IMG/VR virus record: IMGVR_UViG_3300021420_000019
Location: 1-64,000 of that record
DNA length: 64,000 bases
Direction: 5' to 3' (one strand)
Source of the DNA: a virus
The translations under genes were made by a program, and so were the position numbers. Position 1 is the stretch's first letter, and the number at the start of each line of letters is the position of its first letter. The notes beneath the pieces are model-generated. The model had not been told where the DNA came from and did not search any database. It saw nothing but the letters and a program-made list of their open reading frames with translations. Positions 9,451 through 21,869 of this stretch are shown in pieces.

Positions 9451-9831
9451 TTATCGAACCCACTCCGCTGAGATCAGTGCCTCGCCTCGGACCCCGGGCG
9501 GCGGGATCACGCCTATACCGACCGTGACACGGTCTGCCGCGTTAACCCCCGCGTGATTCATGACTAACCTTCGAATCAAATCTACGAAATTAAGGGCCAT
9601 CTTCTCGCAGCTCAGCGGACTACGAGGAGCCGGATAGAACTCTTCTTGGAAGACCTGGTTAACTTCCAACTGATCGATGATAAATCCGTCTCCGTCCAAG
9701 AATTCTGAATCAGACACAATTTCGCAGACAAAGAGGTATTCCTGGGCCCCGGGCTCGCCGTGTCCGCAGACCCCGTCCCCGGTACGCCAGTTAGCTTTGA
9801 AGGTGCCTGCTCGTCGCAGTGTTAGCTTCAT
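9451..9831 (-). CDS. Divergent QueD/PTPS-like T-fold protein
   Basis: Size and the motifs LDGDGFIID and SCEKMA resemble QueD GMVVDF and TAENLA; most metal-binding His residues are not evident. Confidence 0.4.
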   Translation of the reverse strand: MKLTLRRAGTFKANWRTGDGVCGHGEPGAQEYLFVCEIVSDSEFLDGDGFIIDQLEVNQVFQEEFYPAPRSPLSCEKMALNFVDLIRRLVMNHAGVNAADRVTVGIGVIPPPGVRGEALISAEWVR

Positions 9832-10727
9832 AGAACCTCCGGCAGCGCGAACCCGAGCCCGACCCGGGACGCCTCTGACTTCCTGGTTTCGATCTCGCTG
9901 CCAAAACGAATATACTTACTATGTACGTCACCCGCGCTATGCCCGGACCAGTAATGTTCCAATCCGGTGGGCGTGCTCATCTTATTTAGATGCGTGATCC
10001 GGAACCTACGGAACGAGTGAAATCCGGTAACTCTATTCTTTTCAAGACGATCACGGTAGCCGCTCTCCTTGCCAGGGAACAAAAATCCAACGACTTCGGG
10101 AGCGCTCTTCGCAAGAAACTCGTTGAGTTCGGGACTCAAATCCACTTCCCGTTGGCCCGCCTTGGTCTTGGTCGGGCCCAGGCCCGTTCTAGTCCTCTGC
10201 TGCCTTACGACAATTTTTGACTCCGAAGGAATCCAAACAGTGCTAACTCCATCATCTTCAATAACTTGTATAGCCAGAGCTTCGGCAATTCTCAATCCGG
10301 TTCCCGCCAGCAAGGCGTAGAGTGCCTTATCGTGGACGTTCGCCTTCTGTAGGGCGGTCTCTAGCGTTTCTAGGGCTATCATAGCGCCCTCTGAGACCGG
10401 CTCTGGCGCGTCAATGATATCCGCGCTCCAGGTTGTTGGGAAGAGCTGATTCCCGTCTTCATCGGCAGCACTTTTCTTGACCTTTTTAATCAACATCACG
10501 TTTAACGCGATTGACCTGGGCGAGTATCCTTGCTCGGAGAGCTTGGTCACGGTCTCGTTAAGTACTTTATTGCCTATATCTTGCAACGGCATTTTGCCTA
10601 TGATAGGGGCCAAAATGTTAATCGCAGTCTGGTAGGTCCTAACGGACGCCGGGCGGAGCGGGTTGCGCTTCCGATTCGCGCCCTCTTTCAGGAACCGCTC
10701 AGCCTGCTGTTCGAATGTGACTTTCAT
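9828..10727 (-). CDS. Tyrosine recombinase/integrase
   Basis: TGLRIAE, KT, HSFRR, GH and C-terminal Y catalytic pattern; start moved to 10727 because of a GGAGG RBS and upstream promoter. Confidence 0.9.
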   Translation of the reverse strand: MKVTFEQQAERFLKEGANRKRNPLRPASVRTYQTAINILAPIIGKMPLQDIGNKVLNETVTKLSEQGYSPRSIALNVMLIKKVKKSAADEDGNQLFPTTWSADIIDAPEPVSEGAMIALETLETALQKANVHDKALYALLAGTGLRIAEALAIQVIEDDGVSTVWIPSESKIVVRQQRTRTGLGPTKTKAGQREVDLSPELNEFLAKSAPEVVGFLFPGKESGYRDRLEKNRVTGFHSFRRFRITHLNKMSTPTGLEHYWSGHSAGDVHSKYIRFGSEIETRKSEASRVGLGFALPEVL

Positions 10728-10786
10728 CGGTCTTTCCTCCACACCGGCATAATAATCCGATACTTGCGATGTCAAGCCTTATTTTG

Positions 10787-10808
10787 GGGAATTATATAGA
10801 TGACTCCC
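10787..10808 (+). repeat. IS1595-type terminal inverted repeat (orphan left end, or outer end of a nested element)
   Basis: GGGAATTATATAGATGACTCCC matches the ends of 12127..13932. Confidence 0.8.
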
Positions 10809-11060
10809 TCAATCTTGTCCGCTACCGCTTGCCCTTTCAGGATCAACAGCGAGAATTTTTCCCGCCTGGAATATCACATCGAATTCATAAGCTAAGTCTT
10901 GTGCTATCATTTCTTGAGAGTCTTCGCCTTCGTGGGCGGACAGGAATTTTTGAGCCGCGTCTTTGCTTCTTTGTGACGGCGCAATTCCATATTGGTAAGA
11001 CCGAGCGAGAGTAAAAATTTCATCTATTTTCATAACATCTCCTTCAATTGTCGTGGACAT
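10809..11060 (-). CDS. Small hypothetical protein abutting the TIR
   Basis: Stop at 10809-10811 directly adjoins the TIR; GAAGGAG RBS before the internal Met; promoter at 11080. Confidence 0.55.
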   Translation of the reverse strand: MSTTIEGDVMKIDEIFTLARSYQYGIAPSQRSKDAAQKFLSAHEGEDSQEMIAQDLAYEFDVIFQAGKILAVDPERASGSGQD

Positions 11061-11096
11061 CTATTGAATATCCTCACTATGTCAAGCACTATTTTT

Positions 11097-11750
11097 GGGA
11101 ATTATATAGTTAGCTCCCGCGCTGCCGCCTGAATACATGCTTCGCAGGTATAGCAACTCCCGAAGCGTCCGTCCACTTTCGCCCGTTCAAGAACCATTCG
11201 CGCTCCTTTTGGTTGAGTCATCGGCCCTTTGTGCATAACGCTCACACATTTGTGGGAATGCCGCGTTATTACCCAAACCATTGAGCGGCATTCAATCGTT
11301 TCATCCCCGCCACCATACAAGTACTCAAGTGCTTCTTTTTCAAATTCTACCAATGATTTGCTCATGATTTCCCTTTTCATGTGTTGATTTACACGCATCA
11401 AAGCAGTGGACAGGACCGCCGTTCACACTTTGCCATTTGTATGTTAGAAATCCACATTTTTGGCACCGTTTACGCTTTATAGGCGGACCCCACACTCCTT
11501 CTGGCTTGGCATTCGGCATATATTCAGCTCGCTCCTTCTTGGAAATCTCGGAACTGGTCCAGTGGGATTATTGCTATACTGAAATTGGCTCCGATATCGC
11601 GCATTTTCTGGTGCTTTAAGCATAAAACCTGCCCAGCAGTAGGAATATCTAAGCATCGGGTACTCTCTACGGCCAAACATCTGTCAGTAAGCGGATACGT
11701 TTCATTCATAAGTCGTTGATTCCTTTCAGGGAGTTATCTATATAATTCCC
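11097..11750 (-). mobile_element. Non-autonomous IS1595-derived cassette with three small ORFs (11102-11401, 11340-11519, 11524-11709)
   Basis: TIRs at 11097-11118 and 11729-11750; flanks CTATTTTT and TTTATTTT are an imperfect duplication. Confidence 0.75.
11102..11401 (-). CDS. Cassette cargo, Cys/His-rich small protein
   Basis: HKC...CYTCEAC; TAA stop lies inside the left TIR. Confidence 0.6.
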   Translation of the reverse strand: MMRVNQHMKREIMSKSLVEFEKEALEYLYGGGDETIECRSMVWVITRHSHKCVSVMHKGPMTQPKGARMVLERAKVDGRFGSCYTCEACIQAAARELTI

Positions 11751-11764
11751 TTTATTTTTGGAAA

Positions 11765-12052
11765 TTATCCGCTTGACTCTCTCGGTGTACCGCTCCCTAA
11801 ACAAAATGGACAACCATCCCGGTCATAGTGCGTCCGATCATCACAACGATCACCGAAGCAGCACTCGCCGCACCCGGCTGATCCGTCTGATCTTTCAAAT
11901 ATGCGTCCGGGTGTAGGTTTATCTGCTGCTGTTTTTCCGTGTGCGTGCCAGTAACATGAGACGCCAGGATGATAAACGTAGCATCGCCTACAAGGGTGTG
12001 GGAACTTGCAAAACGCGCTGCCTCTCTCGATACACGTACACGCTGTGGTCAT
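11765..12052 (-). CDS. Cys-rich hypothetical protein
   Basis: 95 aa; GAGGG RBS; own TTGACA-17-TATTAT promoter. Confidence 0.55.
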   Translation of the reverse strand: MTTACTCIERGSAFCKFPHPCRRCYVYHPGVSCYWHAHGKTAADKPTPGRIFERSDGSAGCGECCFGDRCDDRTHYDRDGCPFCLGSGTPRESSG

Positions 12053-12086
12053 TGTTTACCCTCTTTGTTTTCGTTTTCTCGCCGAG

Positions 12087-12115
12087 ATAATACAACGATA
12101 TACTCACGATGTCAA
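12087..12115 (-). promoter_or_regulatory. Sigma70-like phage promoter
   Basis: TTGACA (12110-12115), 17 nt, TATTAT (12087-12092). Confidence 0.7.
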
Positions 12116-12271
12116 GCACTATTTAAGGGAATTATATAGTTCACTCCCTTGATTTGGGCTTACCCTTAGCCGACACCGCTCGGTTATTCCTTCGTGCTCT
12201 ACGCTTTGCGGCCTTCGTCTTTATTTTAGGACGGTACGCGAGCACGACATCGGTAATCTGATCTAGGATTT

Positions 12272-13189
12272 TCACTGTGTTAGCCTCTCGAATGTCAAAC
12301 GCTTGCCCGCTACGGCGTCCACAAAACTGTCCAGACGCTCCGTTGTGTGCCGAGATACGTTGCCTTGATTCAGCCGGAAGGTGAACTCATTCACGTATCG
12401 GCCTATGTGCTTCTTATCGGCGTGGTGGTAAACGCCGTGCATCCCGCGCTTCATTACGGCCCAAACGGATTCAATCCCATTTGTGTGAACGTCGCCACGG
12501 ACATACTCGCCTGTGACGTGCTTCACTGAATCGTGCTGGAAGCCTTCCTTTGGAAGCGCGGTATAGCTGCCGTAATCATCGGACAGGATGCGCGTACCGG
12601 GCGCGACGTTCTCATGGATCGCGCCACGAAGGGCTAACCCGCCAGTGCTGGCTACGACCTTAGCAACTGTGTTCCCTCCGCGCTGACGCATCCCTACAAC
12701 GATAGTCTTTTCGGCGCGTTCCCTTGGCTTGTGGATACGGTCGTACATATGCCGATTGCTTTCATCGCCACCGAAGAACGTCTCGTCAACCTCTACGGTT
12801 CCTTGAAGCAACTCCAGTTTGGTCCCGCAAGCCTCACGGAGTCTGTGTAGGACGAACCAAGCGGATTTCTGAGTAATGCCTATCTCTTTGCCCAATTGCA
12901 GGCTAGAGATGCCTTTGCGGGCCGTTACAAGCAAGTACATGGCGTAGAGCCATTTATGCAAGGGAACATGCGAACGCTCAAAGATAGTCTTGGTCCGCAC
13001 TGTGAAGTCCAGTTTGCAGGCATTGCAACGATAGAAGCCGTCCTTGCGCGTCGTGATCCGCTCTTTAGACTTGCACTCGGGACAGGTGACGCCATTCGGC
13101 CAGAGACGGCCTTCCAGATATTTGCGGGCGGAAGGTTCATCCGGGAACAGTTCAAAGAGTTTGAAAGTGCTGATCGTTGACCGACTCAT
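12272..13189 (-). CDS. IS1595-family (ISXO2-like) DDE transposase
   Basis: N-terminal CPEC...CNAC zinc ribbon, HTH, VEVDETFFGG, SDD, HTNGIESVW, YVNEFTFR. Confidence 0.95.
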   Translation of the reverse strand: MSRSTISTFKLFELFPDEPSARKYLEGRLWPNGVTCPECKSKERITTRKDGFYRCNACKLDFTVRTKTIFERSHVPLHKWLYAMYLLVTARKGISSLQLGKEIGITQKSAWFVLHRLREACGTKLELLQGTVEVDETFFGGDESNRHMYDRIHKPRERAEKTIVVGMRQRGGNTVAKVVASTGGLALRGAIHENVAPGTRILSDDYGSYTALPKEGFQHDSVKHVTGEYVRGDVHTNGIESVWAVMKRGMHGVYHHADKKHIGRYVNEFTFRLNQGNVSRHTTERLDSFVDAVAGKRLTFERLTQ

Positions 13190-13488
13190 AACGCATCCCT
13201 ATCATGTAAACCCTTGTGGCCTTTTGGGAGCCTGCACTGATCTTCATACAAGGTTGCTTCGCAGCGAGTTGATTCAATAACAGCATCAAGAAATTTTTCG
13301 GCGATGGGTTCGCTGAGTTCCGACTCAGGCAGTTTATTTTTACTCAACCCCTCAACAAATAGGTCAAGCAAGTCCTGATGATATGGCTGCCACGCGACCC
13401 CCGTTTCGGGATGATGACCTAAACGCTTCTGGATTCTAAGCTCTTGTATTCGTTTTTTAGCAAATTCAATTGCTTCAGGGAGGGTCAT
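13186..13488 (-). CDS. IS passenger, hypothetical protein
   Basis: 100 aa; its stop overlaps the transposase start. Confidence 0.6.
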   Translation of the reverse strand: MTLPEAIEFAKKRIQELRIQKRLGHHPETGVAWQPYHQDLLDLFVEGLSKNKLPESELSEPIAEKFLDAVIESTRCEATLYEDQCRLPKGHKGLHDRDAL

Positions 13489-13775
13489 TATCGGCTCCCA
13501 AAACTTCGATTTTGATCTCGGATAATAGTAGAGCGTGTGAAACCTCGAAGCTGTCCGCGAAAAGCCACTGCATTTGTGCGGCTGTCTCCCACAACCCTGT
13601 CTACGAAGCTGTCTGGAATGCGGCTAGGCGATGTGAATCGGAACACATCACACACATTAGAAAATACCCGAGCCACAACAACAAAGGCTGCGGGGTCACT
13701 TTGGCTCATGTCTTGAATGAAGGCAAGTGCCTGTTGCGTGTTATTAAATTGCCGTGTCCTGAAAGGTCGCATCAT
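13488..13775 (-). CDS. IS passenger, hypothetical protein
   Basis: AGGAG RBS; first gene after the IS promoter. Confidence 0.55.
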   Translation of the reverse strand: MMRPFRTRQFNNTQQALAFIQDMSQSDPAAFVVVARVFSNVCDVFRFTSPSRIPDSFVDRVVGDSRTNAVAFRGQLRGFTRSTIIRDQNRSFGSR

Positions 13776-13813
13776 TTTCGTTTCTCCTGTAGTCAGTATC
13801 AACTTACAGGACC

Positions 13814-13842
13814 ATTATACATAACTCCCTCGCGGTAGTCAA
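13814..13842 (-). promoter_or_regulatory. IS internal promoter overlapping a TIR-like box
   Basis: TTGACT-17-TATAAT; 13816-13829 TATACATAACTCCC matches the TIR core at 13/14 positions. Confidence 0.75.
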
Positions 13843-13944
13843 GTACATTCTGCAATTCAGGCGAAGATTTTTAACGCAAACACGGCACTTAAAGTCGTTT
13901 GTTTACTTGCGGGAGTTATCTATATAATTCCCCTATTTAACGAA

Positions 13945-14685
13945 TTAAAATCCTACACTTGCCTTCTCAATTCGGTCTTTGGCGATTTGAAAATACTTTG
14001 TGTCTTGTTCGATGCCGATGAATTTGCGGTTAAGGTTGACACAGGCAACGCCAGTGGTACCGCTGCCCATACAGTTGTCAAGCACCGTGTCCCCCTCGTT
14101 TGTGTAGGTGCGGATCAGATACTCCATAAGCGCGACGGGCTTTTGTGTGGGGTGTAGTCCGATTTCTCGGTCAAATCGCAAAACCGTTTTAGGGAAACGT
14201 CTCCCCTCGCTTACTGTATCGGTTCTTTTATTGATATTTCCGTAGTTAGACCCCGTATCGTCTTTTCCAGTGCGTTTGTTTTTATATGGCTTACCTTCAA
14301 CCATCTGCGGGTTATATGTAGAGGCCTTATCATAAAAAACGAGAATATTTTCGTGTATCTTCAAAGGCATCCTATTGGCATTCAGGAAGTTGGACGCCAC
14401 GTTCTTCTCCCAAATCCACTCGTATTTAAGAAGATTAAGTTGGGAAGACCCGAGCACTTTATCGAAGGGCGTTTGCGCCGTGAAAACCATCGCCCCCTTG
14501 CATATACCCTCTTGTTGCTTCATAAGGCGAAAGTATTGCGTCCATAGGAGCGGAAGAGAGATGCAGGAATCCCACTTATTTTGGGTCGTGCCGTAAGGCA
14601 AATCAACTAAGACCATATCTACAAACTCCGCAGGAATTTGTTTCATCACTTCTAAACAGTCGCCCTCAAACAGTTGAACGCTCAT
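13945..14685 (-). CDS. DNA N6-adenine/N4-cytosine methyltransferase (beta class)
   Basis: DLPY, HPTQKP, VLDNCMGSGTTG motifs. Confidence 0.93.
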   Translation of the reverse strand: MSVQLFEGDCLEVMKQIPAEFVDMVLVDLPYGTTQNKWDSCISLPLLWTQYFRLMKQQEGICKGAMVFTAQTPFDKVLGSSQLNLLKYEWIWEKNVASNFLNANRMPLKIHENILVFYDKASTYNPQMVEGKPYKNKRTGKDDTGSNYGNINKRTDTVSEGRRFPKTVLRFDREIGLHPTQKPVALMEYLIRTYTNEGDTVLDNCMGSGTTGVACVNLNRKFIGIEQDTKYFQIAKDRIEKASVGF

Positions 14686-14735
14686 GAGACTACCTCCTCT
14701 TCAGGTATAATTGATTACATATACCTTGAAAGATG

Positions 14736-15650
14736 TCAAGTTTTATTTTTCGCTGTAAACCCAAGGGTGAATCCCTCGACCGACTGTCCGACCTTCGATG
14801 CCTTGAACTCGTTCTTGGCGTTGCCCTTAAGACGCCGAAGGGTAGCGTCATAATCCAAATCAAAACAGACCAGAGAGACCACAAGCTCACGGATATGCGC
14901 CAGTCCGAGGCCATCGGTATCTGCGGCCATCTTTTGAATTGTAGATTCCGGCAGCAGGTCCTTTACCGTGTGCCTGATATACTTGATCCTCGCTTCAGCG
15001 ATAGGCGGATTCAGTCCGACAACTAGATCGAACCGGCCCGGGCGGCGTAGTAAACGGTCCTCTAAAACGTCCGGTTTGTTGGTCGTGGCCAAGTGGATGA
15101 TGTTGTCTAACTGTTTTTCGCCATCTAGGAACGACAGCACGTCCGATGCGGTAGCTTCGTCGTGCATCATCCCCTCGATATCCTCAAATATCGTCATCAG
15201 CGGTCTCTTGGGCTCGATCTCGCGGAGCTTTAAAAGTAACTCTTGAGCGTGTCGGATGTTTGTGATAGACACCACGACCCCGTCTCGTGCGATCACCTCG
15301 TCGCACAGTAGCCGGATGATGCTAGTCTTCCCGCACCCAGACGGACCATACAGTAAGACCCCGCGCTTATACAGCAGCCCGATCTTATCGAAAATTTCTT
15401 TCTTATTCCAGAAGTCCTTCATCTGCCCGACGATGTATTCGGTCGGGGTTCCCGGTATATGTATCAAATCGTCTGCGGGGAAGGCTATCTCGACCGCAAA
15501 TTTTTGATCCTCATTGTCGGCCTTTATCTCGTACACTCCGCCGAGAAGTTTCTCGTGAGTCGCATTTATCGGATAAAATCTTCCCCCGCGCTTCGACCAG
15601 TGCGAGAAGTTTTTATCAATATTCAGGTACTCCCAGTCTCTCTCAGACAT
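14736..15650 (-). CDS. AAA+ ATPase
   Basis: GPSGCGKT, IFEDIE, TTN, RRPGRFD. Confidence 0.9.
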   Translation of the reverse strand: MSERDWEYLNIDKNFSHWSKRGGRFYPINATHEKLLGGVYEIKADNEDQKFAVEIAFPADDLIHIPGTPTEYIVGQMKDFWNKKEIFDKIGLLYKRGVLLYGPSGCGKTSIIRLLCDEVIARDGVVVSITNIRHAQELLLKLREIEPKRPLMTIFEDIEGMMHDEATASDVLSFLDGEKQLDNIIHLATTNKPDVLEDRLLRRPGRFDLVVGLNPPIAEARIKYIRHTVKDLLPESTIQKMAADTDGLGLAHIRELVVSLVCFDLDYDATLRRLKGNAKNEFKASKVGQSVEGFTLGFTAKNKT

Positions 15651-15845
15651 ATCTAACCTCCCGAATAATTCTTCTTACATTCAGATACAGACCGAGATAC
15701 CAGATTTCAAAATCGATTCGAGCACGGTGAAACTCGTAGACCATCGGATTGACCAGCTTGCCGTCATGACCGTGGATATCTGTGCAAACCCACCGCTTCT
15801 CTTTTAGGTCTCTCAGATCGGCGTTCACGATAAATTCGAAAAAGT

Positions 15846-16208
15846 TCACTTTGCTTTCCTTTCGGCCTCGGCGTGAAGGGCGGCGAGACGCTTGACTGCC
15901 CAATCGATCCACATTCCCGGTACGACGGTATCATTGGATTTCTGATACCAGACCTCCGCTTCCTCTGCCCTCGCCTTGGCCAGCAACTTGTCGAGCGCGT
16001 GGGCAATTTCAGGAATGATGGACTTGCCGGATGATATTTCTTGCAGAATCAAATCCCGCTCGTTCGCACGCTCAAGCGCCTTCTCGGCTTCAAGCGTGTC
16101 GATCTCATCCAGGAGCTCCCTTTCTCTACCATACGTAACCCTGCAATCCCTGATCCGTTGGCGATCTTCCTTCGTCAACCTAGGCAGTGGTTCTTGCTTG
16201 ACTCTCAT
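15846..16208 (-). CDS. Hypothetical protein
   Basis: 120 aa with GGAGG RBS in an overlapping operon. Confidence 0.55.
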   Translation of the reverse strand: MRVKQEPLPRLTKEDRQRIRDCRVTYGRERELLDEIDTLEAEKALERANERDLILQEISSGKSIIPEIAHALDKLLAKARAEEAEVWYQKSNDTVVPGMWIDWAVKRLAALHAEAERKAK

Positions 16209-16373
16209 TCGACTCCTCCCTTCTCCGGCTCGTGGGCGTCAGCTTGGGGGATGAGGGCGAGGATAAAATCTACCACCTCATATGTTTCCTCAGACTCTCC
16301 AAACTTTTTCCCGTACCTGTCAGCCGCCTCTCTCAGCGCCGCCGCACGCTCAAGCTCCTTCTCGGATTCGAGT

Positions 16374-16853
16374 TCAAGAATTCGCTGCTTTAGCTTGTCG
16401 TTTTCTGTCATATCGCTCATTGGATTCCATCCTGTTACACGTTCGACATTTACGCTGTCCACTCGTTGATACAAGCTGCGTGTTTCCTTCTGTGAATTCA
16501 TGGCCTCGCTTGCAGTGTGTCTTTCGTGCATTCTCGGCACTCAATCCAACTCCACGGAGAATATTCTCCCGGTTCGTTACAGGCTCAACGTGCTTTGGAT
16601 TCCAACACGCCCGAACGCGGCACAGATGATCCAACTGCTTTCCTGGCGGAATTATGCCGCCATAGGCCTCATAGGCCACACGATGAACCTGCTGCGGCTT
16701 TGAATTAACACATATTCTCCCGTAGCCCTTTGTTGATTTTGGCCCGATCCAGACGTGGCAATCACCGACCAAACCGGGAACAGGACATGTCACGAAGATG
16801 GTCTTTTCGAGTAGCCGATCAACTATCGTCTTATTCTTCCCAACTCCGGTCAT
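16374..16853 (-). CDS. HNH endonuclease with C-terminal zinc finger
   Basis: CHVWIG, HRVAY, LDHLCRVRACWNPKH, THCKRGH...CRTC. Confidence 0.9.
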   Translation of the reverse strand: MTGVGKNKTIVDRLLEKTIFVTCPVPGLVGDCHVWIGPKSTKGYGRICVNSKPQQVHRVAYEAYGGIIPPGKQLDHLCRVRACWNPKHVEPVTNRENILRGVGLSAENARKTHCKRGHEFTEGNTQLVSTSGQRKCRTCNRMESNERYDRKRQAKAANS

Positions 16854-16964
16854 CGACTCCTCCCTTCTTCGGCTCATCTTTCTGACGATCTATAAGAAAT
16901 TTAAGTAAATGGACGCCGGGAATTAGTGACCAACACAGAACAAATACGACCCAATCGAGTGTGC

Positions 16965-17549
16965 TCATTCCCGCTCCTTCGTATCTTCATCGAGCGCGGC
17001 CAGTAGTTCGTCAACTAGTTCGTAAGTATCAGGATCGTGAATCTGCCCACCATGGTCTGCATCATCAGTACAGCAATCCAACTTTAGCTGTTCAAGTCGC
17101 ACCTTCGCCCGCTCGATGCGGGCCTGTAAGTCGGTAACTTGAGCGCGATACGCCTTCGTGAGCATATCCACTTGGGCTGAAACTAGCAGTTCATATTCCT
17201 TCCCGGTTTGGTAGCTCATGTGTACGTTGGCGATTTCTTCTTCTTTCGTCGCTTCCAGCACCCGAATTCGCTCTTCTCTTTCCTCAAGCCACGCTTTCAT
17301 GCACTCGATCGCCCCGGCCAGCGTTTCGGGAATAATGCCGAAATGCAACGTATCTTCGATGGCGTCAACCCATTCGCCGTCGCGTTGACGAATCCGCTCC
17401 TCCCGGTCGGCCAGTATTTCGTCTACCTCAGATTGCGAGTAGACGCGCTCAGGCTCAATCTCAGGCCCTTTCTTATCGTGGCACTTACAGGAGCAAGTCC
17501 ACGGCGCTTTGGCTCTCATATGTTCAATATAGCAAGTACAGTTGCTCAT
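16965..17549 (-). CDS. Hypothetical coiled-coil protein
   Basis: 194 aa; GGAGG RBS. Confidence 0.6.
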   Translation of the reverse strand: MSNCTCYIEHMRAKAPWTCSCKCHDKKGPEIEPERVYSQSEVDEILADREERIRQRDGEWVDAIEDTLHFGIIPETLAGAIECMKAWLEEREERIRVLEATKEEEIANVHMSYQTGKEYELLVSAQVDMLTKAYRAQVTDLQARIERAKVRLEQLKLDCCTDDADHGGQIHDPDTYELVDELLAALDEDTKERE

Positions 17550-17560
17550 AGTTCCTCCTA

Positions 17561-17583
17561 AAGAACGCCCGATTTCCCGGGCG
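17561..17583 (-). terminator. Probable intrinsic terminator
   Basis: CGCCCG-loop-CGGGCG followed by TTCTTT on the - strand. Confidence 0.45.
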
Positions 17584-17596
17584 CTCGAACGAAGAA

Positions 17597-18139
17597 CTAG
17601 TTCCCTAAGCGCAGGGTCTTGAAGAACTCATTTGCGTCTTGCTCTGTCGCGTGCAATGACCTGTCGAACACGACGACCCCGATATACGCACGGTAGCCGT
17701 AAGTTGAGACGATCAAGTACGATTCCTGGTTATCGCTCACAGCGTGCGCCTCGCGTGCGAAGATACTGTTAAAGGTCGAGTTCTCTCGGCTGCCCGGGAC
17801 GAGCACCATATTCATAGCTGATATCCCCCCGTCTACAGCGTGATCTAGTGTCGCGACATCGGTTCCGCGAACTGTCGAGTAATCGAAATATGCGATAACG
17901 AAGTCTGCCTTGCCGTCTTTCGTGACAGATTCGAAGGTGTGCTGTTTATACGATGCGTGATCTTCTGTGACGGTCTTGCCGTCTTGGATTGTCGCCGCTA
18001 CCGTGCCGCTGTCTGGCGTAGGAAAGGTGGCCGCGATAACGGAGTTAATCGGGGTGGTCAAAGGATAATCCTGAGTTGCCAAAACGGGAAGCACGAACAT
18101 TAGAACGGACATCACTGATACAACGATTTTATTTTTCAT
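17597..18139 (-). CDS. Exported protein of unknown function
   Basis: Signal peptide MKNKIVVSVMSVLMFVLPVLA. Confidence 0.7.
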   Translation of the reverse strand: MKNKIVVSVMSVLMFVLPVLATQDYPLTTPINSVIAATFPTPDSGTVAATIQDGKTVTEDHASYKQHTFESVTKDGKADFVIAYFDYSTVRGTDVATLDHAVDGGISAMNMVLVPGSRENSTFNSIFAREAHAVSDNQESYLIVSTYGYRAYIGVVVFDRSLHATEQDANEFFKTLRLGN

Positions 18140-18182
18140 AGTTTCTCCTAAGTTTGATTTTAATCTCTATTGCCAAAAATTA

Positions 18183-18764
18183 TTACTTACCGTCCGCCAA
18201 TCTGAGAATCTTCACAGTGTATAACCCGTCACATGATTGGCAACCCGTACCAGTCCCTTGATAGTGAAGGATTCCGTCCTCTCTGCCGTACGCTTTGATA
18301 TACCCGGCTAGAATCTTTGTACCTGTTTCAACATTTTCTTTCTCGTTGAACAAGTTCACCTTGTTCTGGAAATCGTACGTCGATTTGTGAACTGAAGCCA
18401 TAACCTGCATCAATCCGACCGCACCACGGCTAGATGTCGCGTACGGATTACAATCGGACTCCACTGATACTATCGCCGCCACGAGATTTGGCTCCTGGCC
18501 CTCGTTAACTGAAACTTCAGCGACCATCCGGCCTAGCTCTGGGGTCGCGTCCTTGCAGCCCGCGCCAGCTCGACCGAATACCTTGGCGACATCCCACATC
18601 GCCATACTAATCTTCTGTTCTCTCTTATCGGGCTCCGCGATCTTGATTACCTGAACAGGCGGAGGAACCGTATTGACCTTATATGGCTTAAGCGCGAAAA
18701 ACAGCACCGTGATTATGACAGCCGTGATCGACAAATTTATTCGTACCGCTTTTGGAATGTTCAT
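18183..18764 (-). CDS. Membrane-anchored lytic transglycosylase (SLT domain)
   Basis: AIVSVES, GAVGLMQV, N..GT.IL motifs; N-terminal transmembrane segment. Confidence 0.9.
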   Translation of the reverse strand: MNIPKAVRINLSITAVIITVLFFALKPYKVNTVPPPVQVIKIAEPDKREQKISMAMWDVAKVFGRAGAGCKDATPELGRMVAEVSVNEGQEPNLVAAIVSVESDCNPYATSSRGAVGLMQVMASVHKSTYDFQNKVNLFNEKENVETGTKILAGYIKAYGREDGILHYQGTGTGCQSCDGLYTVKILRLADGK

Positions 18765-18781
18765 GGAACCTCCTTAAGTAT

Positions 18782-19059
18782 GAGAATTATATAGTTACTT
18801 CCCGTACTGCTTTTCAAAGACTTGCAAATAATTTTGCACTGCATAATTCAATCGTGCCTGCTCTTGTCTAAGTCGTTTGATTTCTTGTATCAGAAGTTGT
18901 TGAATCACCCACTGCGTATCGTTAGAGCCCCATTGCCCCTGACCGTAACCAACCAATTCCGCAATTTCTTGCCTCGCCGCACTCGCGTTGAAAACTTCTT
19001 TGACCTTTTTCATTTCTTATCTCCTTTGTTTACTTATGGAAGTTAACTATATAATTCCT
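18782..19059 (-). mobile_element. 278-bp non-autonomous IS1595-derived single-gene cassette
   Basis: TIRs at 18782-18803 and 19038-19059; perfect duplication TTAAGTAT (18774-18781 and 19060-19067). Confidence 0.9.
18795..19013 (-). CDS. Cassette cargo, 72 aa helical protein
   Basis: AAAGGAG RBS; TAA stop inside the left TIR. Confidence 0.7.
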   Translation of the reverse strand: MKKVKEVFNASAARQEIAELVGYGQGQWGSNDTQWVIQQLLIQEIKRLRQEQARLNYAVQNYLQVFEKQYGK

Positions 19060-19065
19060 TTAAGT

Positions 19066-19094
19066 ATGGTCTCAGATCGAGTTCAGTTTGTCAA
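19066..19094 (-). promoter_or_regulatory. Sigma70-like phage promoter reading into the cassette and SLT gene
   Basis: TTGACA at 19089-19094, 17 nt, TGA-GACCAT. Confidence 0.55.
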
Positions 19095-19457
19095 GCTAAT
19101 TTTCCACTTACTTTTAACATTATCGCGTAGACCACGCCCATCACGGGCCAGACTAGCTCTCCGTAAATATCTCGTGTAAACCACCCGAGTAGAGAGAATA
19201 AGGAGAACGGGAACGCGGACAAGAACAGCCCGACGATATAATATTCGAGTACCTTCAGTACCTTGTTCATTAGTCTCCCTTCGGGTAGTCCCTGCACATG
19301 CACCGCTTAATCGCGAGTTCGAGTAAGTACGCTAAATGTTCAATTGCTTCCTCGGCCCGCTCTGGCGCGATAACGTGAGCGCAGGCTGCAACCAAAATCT
19401 CTGGTTTAGCGGCCAGTGCTCTAGCGGTCTGTATCGCAACTTTCTTTGGGCTCTCCG

Positions 19458-19784
19458 TCACTCGCCCTGCCAACGGCCAAGTATATCGCGAAAATCTAAC
19501 GGCAAAAACCACTCACCATCGATCAGAAAACCTGCGGTTTCGCGCTGCTCTCTTAAAGTCGCGTTAGTCGATTGATGGCTGATGATATCGCCCTCCTCGA
19601 CCTCGGAGTAGATCAGCATGCCCTCAAACGGGCGTGCAGCGCCTACCGCGACGACCTTGAACTTGTAAGGCTCCTCTGGCTTCAGCTTATCGGTCTTCCC
19701 TCCGAAACCCACCGCCGCCTTGTCTGACGGGATATCATCGACTGGGATGACGAACACGTAACCGCGTGCAGGATGTAATTTCAT
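19458..19784 (-). CDS. Divergent GroES-like co-chaperonin
   Basis: MKLHP..GYVFV, KVVAVG, EVEEGD, DILG; GGAGG RBS before 19784. Confidence 0.65.
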   Translation of the reverse strand: MKLHPARGYVFVIPVDDIPSDKAAVGFGGKTDKLKPEEPYKFKVVAVGAARPFEGMLIYSEVEEGDIISHQSTNATLREQRETAGFLIDGEWFLPLDFRDILGRWQGE

Positions 19785-20075
19785 TTTGCCTCCTAAGCAA
19801 AGACTGGCTCTGGTTCGGGTTCCGGCACCGGCTCTTGAACAGGTTCGGAGTTCGGTATCTCTTCCTCGAACGGCCACTTAAAACAGTTAAACATTATATC
19901 CTCCCAATTGGTCGCACGTCTTCAAATCGTTTGCGAGCTTCTTTCTTGCTCTTATAGATATTCAACGCTAGAATCAGAGGCTCACCGGGCTGCACATAAT
20001 CATCGCAAGTGTTTTCCCAATACGGTTTGTCATCTGTATACCCAACCCACCCGAGTATTTTCTTCTTCTTTGCCA

Positions 20076-20456
20076 TCATGATCTCCTATCTCTTTTAGTT
20101 CGTTCCGCTCTCTGATAGCCCTCTTGCGCCTTTAGCCTAAGATTATAACTGGCGTACCAGTCTATATCACAACAGCCACGCTTAGCAAATACCTGCTGAA
20201 GTCGTGCGGTCATTAAGTGATCGATCCTTCCGTCTAAGCCGGTAATCACTAGCGCCTCGGCCTTCTCGCGGAAGCCGTCCTGGACGGTCTTCAAGATCAG
20301 TTTCTGCTCGATGGTACGATCCGCTTCTGGAATCAGCATTACAGAGGGCACATCGTAGCACTCTTTCGGTTGCTTGCAGACCTCGCAGCGTTCGTTAGAT
20401 ACTACCGCCGAGTCCGGCCAGCCCTTCTTCTCTCGACAATCTTTACAGAAGTTCAT
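20076..20456 (-). CDS. Zinc-finger-containing hypothetical protein
   Basis: CKDC...CEVC; downstream of a promoter and a 12-bp hairpin. Confidence 0.6.
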   Translation of the reverse strand: MNFCKDCREKKGWPDSAVVSNERCEVCKQPKECYDVPSVMLIPEADRTIEQKLILKTVQDGFREKAEALVITGLDGRIDHLMTARLQQVFAKRGCCDIDWYASYNLRLKAQEGYQRAERTKRDRRS

Positions 20457-20519
20457 AATTAACCTTTCCTAGGTAGGGGCTAGATTTTATCCCCTACCTA
20501 GGCCTATCTGCGGGATTAA

Positions 20520-20548
20520 AGATTCTCATACTTTCGGTTCTTTGTCAA
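20520..20548 (-). promoter_or_regulatory. Sigma70-like phage promoter
   Basis: TTGACA at 20543-20548, 17 nt, TGA-GAATCT. Confidence 0.6.
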
Positions 20549-20559
20549 GATAAATCTTT

Positions 20560-20895
20560 GGGAATTATATACTTAACTCCCTGTTTGTCGAACGCGAACC
20601 CCACAATAAATCATTCCGCGAATAAAAATTGCCGCCAACTTCCGTAGAAAAGGCAACGACTCTTCGATGCCCACGTTATCGGACCAAGCGGCCTCCAAAC
20701 GACTTAGATACACACGACCCAGAGTAGCAAAGCCAGCGGGTTCTTTAGCTTCATCGTCAGTTCGACGCGGAAGACTGTTTTGGTATTCAATTTCAGTCCA
20801 AACCGCATCGCACGCCGCTTGAAACTCTGCTTTTGTAACTGTTTTACTCATACTATCTCCTTTGTTTACTTGTAGAAGTTAAATATATAATTCCC
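20560..20895 (-). mobile_element. 336-bp non-autonomous IS1595-derived single-gene cassette
   Basis: TIRs at 20560-20581 and 20874-20895; perfect duplication AAATCTTT (20552-20559 and 20896-20903). Confidence 0.9.
20573..20851 (-). CDS. Cassette cargo, 92 aa all-alpha protein (possibly MazG-like fold)
   Basis: AAAGGAG RBS; TAA inside the left TIR; E.EYQ...LRKLAAI pattern is weakly NTP-PPase-like. Confidence 0.6.
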   Translation of the reverse strand: MSKTVTKAEFQAACDAVWTEIEYQNSLPRRTDDEAKEPAGFATLGRVYLSRLEAAWSDNVGIEESLPFLRKLAAIFIRGMIYCGVRVRQTGS

Positions 20896-21869
20896 AAATC
20901 TTTGCTTCTCGTTCACAAAATACGCACTCTTCTTCGCGGGTCTTGCCGTGCTGACACGGATTGCAAGTGCAGCAGTTCGTGAAGCAATTTAAGCACTCAG
21001 AGCAAAGCCCGGTAACGATATCTTCGCAGCCCTGACAGTGTACCCTGTTAAAGGGATCGTGTGCTTCGGTCATCGCAGGTACGGCTCCATCCTGCCTAGT
21101 GGCTTTGTGTTATCGAGCACCTGGGCCAAGACAATAGCCCAGACCGCGTCCATATTGTGCTCGGATTCGCGGGCGATACGATTCACGCGCCTAGACATTT
21201 GATGGTTTGACATCTTTTGGACCTGGCGCTGGATCAGTTGATCGGGCGCTAGTTCCTTCTTCGGTACTGGTGTCTGTTCGTTCATCTCTATACCCAACGA
21301 AACTCTGGTAACGACGGCGGGACTACCCGCCCAACCGAAGCGTGAGATGCTCTGCCGTCTTGATCGACGGTGAATACCGTGAACACCCTTTGTTTTGGGC
21401 GTTCTACGCCCTCAACATAACGTTGGGCGTCACCAAGAAAATCGAACGGTCCGCGAATCCACGGGCTACGGTCGCTCAAGCCATCTGTAATCAGTACATA
21501 AAATTTCATAAATCCTCCTAAGTTTGTTTTAATCTTCCGTCGTTAATTACTGGCCGAAGTTTTCCGTCCGGGCAGCGCCACATCCATTTATTCGCTTCGT
21601 CCAAATAGACTGCGCGATGTTTACATATGTAACACTTCCCGCACCTGGAACAGATGTGAAGCAGCTCGCCATGGGTTCCAGTTAAGCGGCAGATGTGCGC
21701 GACCAGAAGCCACCTTCCTTGATCGAGCCCCCGACCCAGACCTGTTTCCCCCGGCTGCGATTTCGTTCTTCACGTTGCTTTTGATAGGCCTCTCGGCTTC
21801 GTGCATTTTTGCGATCTCTGTGTGTCTTTGTCCCAATCATAAATACCTCACTTGGTTAGTGTTTCATAT

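Follow-up and report, generated by a model that had tools for sequence, protein, structure and literature searches.

The window, that is, the whole 64,000-nt stretch of DNA analyzed here, is the first 64 kb of IMG/VR virus record IMGVR_UViG_3300021420_000019 (101,523 bp, estimated to be 95% complete). It contains an autonomous insertion sequence (IS) of the IS1595 family, shorter elements that have ends of the same type and no transposase gene (MIC1, MIC2, and cassette B), and two units, A and C, that retain a single end (Table 1). Along the direction of transcription, the array that leads to the integrase gene consists of the IS; a promoter, the 95-aa open reading frame (ORF) and the diverged solo end of unit C; cassette B; a promoter, the 83-aa ORF and the solo end of unit A; and a promoter followed by the integrase gene (9828-10775), which encodes a phage-type tyrosine integrase (phrog_1) and is read in the same direction as the cassettes. 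All ORFs of the elements are on the minus strand, as are the neighboring genes, in agreement with the co-orientation with phage transcription described in a first-pass annotation that had been made from the sequence alone. We consider it very likely that these elements belong to one IS1595 transposon family, in which an autonomous IS is accompanied by mobile insertion cassettes (MICs) moved in trans and one clade inserts upstream of promoters.

Repeat ends and the elements that they bound

At a threshold of ≤3 mismatches, the 22-mer that forms the element ends was found nine times in the window, at the positions listed by the first-pass annotation, and 0 times in 100 shuffled sequences; the remainder of the 101,523-bp record contains no additional copy at the same threshold. 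The ends in the window read GGGAATTATATA. A looser scan identified a tenth end (11760-11781), which has 5 mismatches to the family consensus and which we take to be real because it differs at only 3 positions from the end (GGGAATTATCCACTTGACTCCC) that a second IS lineage has in a related phage. When read from the inside to the outside of an element, the end has TAA in two of the three frames, so stop codons fall at a fixed 5 or 13 nt from the outer tip. The ORF stops are placed as had been noted, inside the ends that lie to the left in the window numbering (11102, 12141, 18795, and 20573) or, in one case (10809), directly against such an end. Perfect 8-bp duplications flank three elements (12127-13932, 18782-19059, and 20560-20895). 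The flanks of cassette B, CTATTTTT and TTTATTTT, match at 6 of 8 positions, which is the imperfect duplication reported earlier, and the end at 10787 is an orphan as described, since unit A has no second end.

The element at 12127-13932 has the perfect 8-bp repeat and the Pfam domains of the autonomous IS1595 element that had been proposed at this position. Its transposase matches PF12762 (DDE_Tnp_IS1595, E = 1.1e-40, profile positions 2-153 of 153) and PF12760 (Zn_ribbon_IS1595, E = 2.4e-10, residues 16-59). Its DDE_Tnp_IS1595 domain, its zinc finger at the N terminus, and its 8-bp duplications are those of the IS1595 family, in which all groups save IS1016 carry a zinc finger (Zn_Tnp_IS1595) at the N terminus and insertion produces 8-bp duplications (PMC8101967). 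Within one pair of ends this element carries both the transposase gene and unrelated passengers, which is what distinguishes a transporter IS. Its GG..AT.TAT ends look to be of the ISNwi1 type, an assignment that we presume from the subgroup motif ggnnatTAT of the ISfinder table.

Table 1. Positions of the IS, the cassettes, the single-ended units, and their component features in the window (IRL and IRR, left and right inverted repeats of an element; -35, promoter hexamer)
Feature	Positions	Strand	Remarks
Autonomous IS1595-family transporter IS, 1,806 bp	12127-13932	-	CTATTTAA on each side; assigned from ends, Pfam, and modular comparison
IRL of the IS, followed by subterminal GCAAGTAAACAAA	13911-13932	-	
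Promoter-like site inside the IS, TTGACT-17-TATAAT	13814-13842	-	Consensus match only; within the 120-bp 5′ module
Variable passenger slot of the IS, two ORFs without family match	13186-13802	-	
Passenger ORFs of the IS, ∼95 aa and 100 aa	13488-13775; 13186-13488	-	
Transposase, 305 aa, N-terminal zinc ribbon and DDE_Tnp_IS1595 domain	12272-13189	-	Pfam
Small basic ORF, 44 aa, Lys/Arg-rich	12141-12275	-	Overlaps the transposase stop; terminates in the IRR
IRR of the IS	12127-12148	+	Outer tip 10 nt from CTTGACA of the next promoter
MIC1, 278-bp one-gene cassette	18782-19059	-	Duplication TTAAGTAT
MIC1 cargo ORF, 72 aa	18795-19013	-	Final residues GK and stop encoded by the transposon end
MIC2, 336-bp one-gene cassette	20560-20895	-	Duplication AAATCTTT; 10 nt upstream of CTTGACA
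MIC2 cargo ORF, 92 aa, widespread phage gene family	20573-20851	-	
Cassette B, 654 bp, without transposase, three serial small ORFs	11097-11750	-	Imperfect duplication
Cassette B ORFs	11524-11709; 11340-11519; 11102-11401	-	
Unit A: solo IRR-type end (10787-10808), ORF 10809-11060 (83 aa), promoter-like CTTGACA at 11086	10787-11096	-	
Unit C: diverged solo end (11760-11781), ORF 11765-12052 (95 aa, Cys-rich)	11760-12126	-	
Unit C promoter, TTGACA-17-TATTAT	12087-12115	-	Consensus match
Integrase promoter -35, CTTGACA at 10776	10770-10786	-	Solo end at 10787 sits 10 nt upstream

The elements at 18782-19059 and 20560-20895 had been described as transposase-less, and each indeed has IS ends, a perfect duplication, one passenger gene, and no transposase gene, the combination for which the term MIC is in use (PMC6199540, PMC6542083). 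Both have the same layout: IRL, two variable bases, AAGTAAACAAAGGAGATA, a few bases, ATG, one ORF, and IRR. The reported leader common to the two cassettes and its likeness to the subterminal sequence of the IS are evident after the right-hand end, where AAGTAAACAAAGGAGATA compares with AAGTAAACAAA. Over their first ∼38 nt both agree with the IS (from the IRL through AAACAAAGGA in, for example, the relatives L299, L046, and L048), so the Shine-Dalgarno sequence of MIC1 and MIC2 is largely IS subterminal sequence; the promoter module of the IS is absent, so both cassettes rely on transcription from outside. The earlier proposal that the transposon end supplies both stop and ribosome-binding site (RBS) therefore stands for the stop, given the two TAA frames, and applies to the RBS in one leader lineage only, in which the end region contributes much of the Shine-Dalgarno sequence. 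Compared with the IS ends, those of MIC1 and MIC2 are changed at 2-4 positions.

A leader of identical type precedes different ORFs in cassettes of two other contigs (L054 and G005), and the cassette of the related phage G004 has a related, more diverged leader (ACAAGAAAAGAAAGGG); three cassettes share one 42-nt 5′ end but not their ORFs. In cassette B the IRL does not differ from that of the IS, and the leader is of a second type, GGAATCA..GAGTTATG, in which the ATG lies 19 nt from the end. This leader (GGAATCAACGACTTATG) is also found in the L105 and L114 cassettes, which carry other genes, one of them a methylase.

Modular structure and cargo across the family

An end-motif scan of viral contigs gave at least 120 stretches, and relatives of the transposase are encoded in 160 stretches; the family counts that follow cover the IMG/VR loci that were fetched. 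These loci contain 99 distinct end-bounded elements (263-3,509 bp), 72 of which have perfect 8-bp duplications, and the duplications are 85% A+T. Thirty elements are shorter than 1.3 kb, and most of these have one ORF, with a start that is typically 11-25 nt past one end and a stop within the opposite end or shortly ahead of it. The search of other viral contigs that the first-pass annotation had suggested thus revealed a diverse, mostly unrelated cargo. Ends and transposases of this family, with duplications, also occur in bacterial metagenome-assembled genome (MAG) contigs, mainly of Acidobacteriota; because it is common there, the transposase family is not phage-specific, and the host of the phage may be an acidobacterium. 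A Nitrospirales chromosome (OZ253473.1; L368-L375) has at least eight copies of a 1,692-bp relative with 60% transposase identity. These copies have differing 8-bp duplications and no promoter phasing, and they look like ordinary IS expansion in a bacterial chromosome. Among the curated phage genomes of INPHARED, no DNA match to the region or to the IS was found.

The closest relatives of the IS in other viral contigs encode transposases that are 83-97% identical to the one in the window (96-97% for the best). When the window copy was compared with four of these relatives (L129, L130, L131, and L133), module 1 (positions 1-120 of the IS, comprising the IRL, the AAGTAAACAAA leader, and TTGACT-17-TATAAT) was ∼90% identical across all five, and the part from the transposase ATG through the IRR was kept in all of them. 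The 44-aa basic ORF has 82-84% identity in L129 and L299. Between these modules, the slot is unrelated in each copy and contains one to three small ORFs or a C5 methylase gene (L134). Because conserved modules flank unrelated middles, we conclude that the IS is a transporter IS with a sharply bounded, fast-changing slot.

The cargo proteins of the family are mostly unrelated to each other, and BLASTP finds no kinship among those of the window, as the first-pass annotation had indicated. The sole clear cluster consists of six divergent N6/N4 DNA methylases (PF01555). Two further passengers with Pfam matches come from related ∼100-kb phages: a C5 cytosine methylase in an IS relative of G004 (L134:3069-5093; PF00145, 5e-15) and a Mom-family protein in a more distant IS relative of G001 (L295:4601-6483; PF25680, 5e-11). 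That the nameable cargo is mostly DNA-modifying suggests protection against restriction. A DNA methyltransferase gene (13945-14685, minus strand; phrog_67, E = 6e-73) lies 13 bp outside the IRL of the IS; no end sequence was found beyond it in the window, and a methylase 56% identical to its product is the cargo of a 903-bp cassette in another viral contig (L025/L254).

None of the window cargo ORFs has a match in Pfam or PHROGs. Homologs of the 92-aa MIC2 protein form at least 84 clusters in contigs from the environment, most of them phage-like. At three loci, in the 332-kb phage contig L297, the 19.5-kb contig L298, and L134 of the related phage G004, homologs with 72-74% identity are ordinary, tightly packed genes, and no end sequence is present nearby even at 6 mismatches. 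These homologs without ends indicate that an ordinary phage accessory gene has been enclosed by transposon ends. The protein is modeled as a three-helix structure (predicted local distance difference test score (pLDDT) 89); a profile search of PDB sequences was empty, and Foldseek gave no match at E ≤0.001. VIA-align scores (Z = 8.4 to AF_0060 and ∼6 to PRA-PH/RS21-C6), together with an Atlas lead, are a weak hint that it may have an all-alpha NTP-pyrophosphohydrolase-like fold.

The two closest homologs of the MIC1 cargo (85-86% identity) are encoded on contigs of 0.9-1.1 kb, and their C-termini, GKLTI and GKLSI, are the exact translation of GGGAAGTTAACTATATAA or GGGAAGTTAAGTATATAA. Because these tails are end-encoded, the MIC1 cassette also occurs on other contigs, together with its end; the window copy has lost 1 nt of the end, which moves the stop forward. 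End-encoded C-terminal tails (GKLTI, GKLSI, and ELTI) mark cassette-borne proteins (P0087 and P0088), and such added residues are a cheap handle for mining protein databases for cassettes.

Insertion sites, promoters, and the array beside the integrase gene

The minus-strand promoters of the phage have an AT-rich stretch followed by CTTGACA, the region reading AAAATAGTG-CTTGACA, and promoters of this type without an upstream element are found at 14740, 21887, 32699, and 48736. At 10776, 11086, 12116, and 20549, the CTTGACA is exactly 10 nt from the outer tip of an IRR. Family-wide, CTTGACA occurs at offset 10 in 8 of 144 flanks, always on the downstream side of the cargo or transposase, and at any other offset it occurs 0-1 times. 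When one mismatch is allowed, TTGACA is present at offset 11 after the IRR in 8 of the 10 elements whose transposase has at least 70% identity to that of the window, compared with 2 of 97 more distant elements (Fisher p = 6e-9). The phased sites are independent insertions, because their duplications and flanks differ. The L054, G004, and G005 cassettes, which belong to the leader lineage of MIC1 and MIC2, follow the same 10-11-bp rule, an indirect indication that the same kind of transposase may move cassettes of this lineage.

Two explanations of the phasing were rejected. The promoter is not part of the mobile unit, as the 8-bp duplications lie immediately next to the ends, with the promoter beyond them. 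Mimicry of a transposon end by the target was also considered, as the family-consensus end has CTTGAC; the case is weak, since the ends of this clade have GATAAC, GTTAAC, or GTGAAC. Because the phasing tracks transposase phylogeny, we think it somewhat likelier that the element encodes recognition of the upstream-element-plus--35 architecture than that selection alone produced the pattern.

Several observations concern sequence next to the insertions. When read outward, the end of MIC2 (20564-20591, minus strand) has TATAAT 5 nt from its tip, as family ends generally do, and a TCGACA 16 nt upstream of this TATAAT makes an 11/12 promoter-like match aimed out of the cassette; judged from these motifs, family ends might substitute for the upstream element or add outward transcription. 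Upstream of MIC2, a Cys-rich 64-aa ORF (20879-21073, minus strand) now terminates in the IRL of the cassette (...KIWELYI). If the insertion were absent, its C-terminus would be ...KIYLDKEPKV, and the ORF would overlap the promoter that follows; the insertion swapped its last eight codons for five end-encoded ones.

Units A and C each keep only the stop-side end. They could have arisen by nested insertion followed by deletion, or by recombination between elements, and it is possible that unit A and cassette B form one composite (10787-11750), the flanks of which match at 7 of 8 positions. In the syntenic relative G001, 1.3 kb separates the integrase gene from the next common gene, compared with 5.4 kb in the window, and neither MIC1 nor MIC2 is present; the region on the integrase side is therefore variable. 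The three promoters of the array (10760-10786, 11070-11096, and 12100-12126) have ∼25 nt in common (AAATAGTGCTTGACATCGTGAGTAT type), a likeness that far exceeds that among the other promoters of the phage, and they resemble promoters just inside the IRL of three distant family members (L096, L161, and L181). From this resemblance, they may be paralogous copies tied to elements.

Competing explanations and known systems

Under the one-family interpretation, the autonomous element (12127-13932) comprises an IRL, a conserved 120-bp leader with a promoter-like site of its own, a freely exchangeable slot, the transposase gene, the small basic ORF, and an IRR. Cassettes keep the two ends, to which one lineage adds ∼16 nt of the IRL side ending in the RBS-like AAGGAG, and hold one to three tightly packed small ORFs, with the stop usually in the end sequence. 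Having no transposase of their own, they must be moved in trans, presumably by a transposase such as that encoded at 12272-13189. Each insertion duplicates 8 AT-rich bases, and in the transposase clade of the window the IRR lands 10-11 bp upstream of a sigma-70-type -35 box (target AAAATAG-TG-CTTGACA), co-directional with the promoter. Promoterless cargo, probably drawn from the phage accessory-gene pool, is in this way appended to the preceding transcription unit, and the promoter that follows stays intact. A stronger proposal is possible, if somewhat doubtful: that the clade is a true promoter-targeting transposon, which would recognize the upstream element together with the -35 box, insert 10-11 bp upstream in the direction of transcription and, with its one-gene derivatives, constitute a plug-in system spreading accessory genes (often anti-restriction) among unrelated phages. 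A specific mechanism, as opposed to random deletion, would then swap the ORFs behind a constant leader.

Several results weigh against this interpretation. The single-ended units A and C and the imperfect duplication of cassette B show that part of the array reflects rearrangement. MIC1 breaks the promoter rule: it sits between a -10-like site, in a promoter-like region at ∼19095, and the RBS of a transglycosylase-like gene (18183-18764), and from this position its cargo would come first in transcripts that begin there. The promoters were assigned as consensus matches only, a general promoter scan of the region was not enriched over shuffles, and the phasing could partly stem from a bias toward an AT-rich 8-mer that itself makes up part of the promoter consensus in these phages. 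The check for empty sites in relatives that had been suggested yielded no exact one for any insertion in the window; the closest phage found, G001, is without the cassettes, and at 50-65% protein identity it is too diverged for comparison at the base level. For the flanking protein encoded at 18183-18764, viral contigs contain no relative and metagenome contigs contain relatives of 35-39% identity only, and relatives of the methyltransferase encoded at 13945-14685 reach at most 64% identity. Empty-site queries reconstructed for 72 family members likewise found nothing real among the fetched loci.

We regard it as improbable that the locus is a dedicated integron-like platform, maintained by the phage to capture promoterless ORFs beside its integrase gene. 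Four units abut directly upstream of the integrase gene (10787-13932), as in such a platform, but this clustering is accounted for by the targeting of similar promoters, and two cassettes lie 5-7 kb from the array. Cassettes that are promoterless, mostly single-ORF, and alike in leader and stop, among them the three with one 42-nt 5′ end and different ORFs, would fit capture into a platform, as would an IS slot that turns over between near-identical transposases; however, every complete unit is flanked by an 8-bp duplication of its own, which marks it as a product of independent transposition, and elements of the family are scattered singly in many unrelated phages and bacterial MAGs. The phage-type integrase gene reads away from the array, in the same direction, and no attC-like folded site is present. 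With no attC or attI, no capture by a site-specific recombinase, and a separate duplication for each complete cassette, the integron-like system inferred in the first-pass annotation was not borne out.

It is similarly unlikely that the short elements are dead relics, that is, internally deleted, immobile IS copies with incidental ORFs. Units A and C are clearly broken and the duplication of cassette B is imperfect, as expected of relics, whereas the duplications of MIC1 and MIC2 are perfect and each of the two is filled by an intact ORF. The 2-4 positions at which the ends of these two cassettes depart from the IS ends, and the lack of empty sites for this phage, would also suit decay; against this, the MIC2 cargo, with homologs in at least 84 clusters, has a confidently modeled fold (pLDDT 89) and does not stem from any IS gene, cassettes of the leader lineage occupy canonical promoter targets in different phages with different duplications, and the MIC1 cassette recurs on other contigs with its end-encoded tail intact. 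Far less probable than either of these explanations, to the point that it can practically be set aside, is that the 22-mers are regulatory repeats of the phage (promoter or terminator palindromes, compare T4-type promoter-stem-loop cassettes). The 22-mer is quasi-palindromic, has TATAAT, and often adjoins promoters, but it occurs as inverted pairs with 8-bp direct duplications that bound an IS1595 transposase gene, the same ends with duplications are found at about a hundred unrelated loci, and the duplications are not part of a longer conserved repeat.

Among known systems, the cassettes are most readily compared with MIC231, an MIC derived from IS231 in the Bacillus cereus group. MICs and the present cassettes are alike in having the inverted repeats of a resident IS, no transposase, one or more passenger genes, target duplications, and presumed mobilization in trans. 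The parent is an IS1595 element here instead of an IS4/IS231 element, the cassettes described here are in phage genomes, some are stripped to an end, an RBS, and one ORF with its stop in the other end, and one clade sits at a fixed promoter distance. The autonomous element resembles the transporter IS (tIS) of the IS1595 family, reportedly described by Siguier, Gagnevin and Chandler in 2009 (cited in PMC8101967), in its zinc-ribbon and DDE_Tnp_IS1595 domains, 8-bp duplications, GG-starting ends, and passengers. In contrast to known tIS, its slot is sharply bordered, after the promoter of the element on one side and at the transposase ATG on the other, and is different in each close relative, and a conserved small basic ORF follows the transposase gene. 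The nearest published parallel to the fixed-distance, oriented insertion beside a functional DNA site is the IS1202 family, members of which target the dif/pdif sites of XerC/D at fixed distance and orientation (PMC10132070). These elements differ from those studied here in that they belong to another IS family, their target is the XerC/D site and not a promoter, and they have no cassette cargo.

Integrons rely on a tyrosine recombinase, attI/attC recombination, and a single array behind Pc. Integron cassettes are likewise small and very diverse in content, consist mostly of a single ORF without a promoter, and rely on being transcribed from outside; the elements described here differ in having a DDE transposase, an 8-bp duplication for each unit, and scattered positions. 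The integron label was rejected because the neighboring recombinase is a generic phage integrase (phrog_1) and the units are bounded by inverted ends and duplications. Miniature inverted-repeat transposable elements (MITEs), which are non-coding by definition, are similar in being short and non-autonomous, with IS-derived ends and target duplications. That label fails here, as the elements carry genes, each being filled by an intact ORF with homologs elsewhere. The elements are therefore of known kinds, MIC and tIS, and they stand out mainly by a minimal design adapted to phages, by the turnover of their cargo, and by the targeting of promoters. Our literature search found no description of IS1595 cassettes in phages and none of promoter-phased, oriented insertion by the IS1595 family.

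In phage genomes, insertion sequences are generally regarded as rare and as harmful. The present family evidently overcomes that cost by its minimal size and by its use of tolerated sites between a transcription unit and the next promoter, and evidently carries genes useful to the phage, DNA-modification enzymes included. Should the element itself encode the promoter targeting, this would offer a simple protein-based means of gene placement at a defined distance from bacterial promoters, and a route by which anti-restriction and accessory genes move between unrelated environmental phages.

The same early region of the phage also contains another gene of a mobile type, a free-standing HNH endonuclease gene (16374-16877, minus strand; phrog_826, 7e-45), which lies between the two groups of cassettes.

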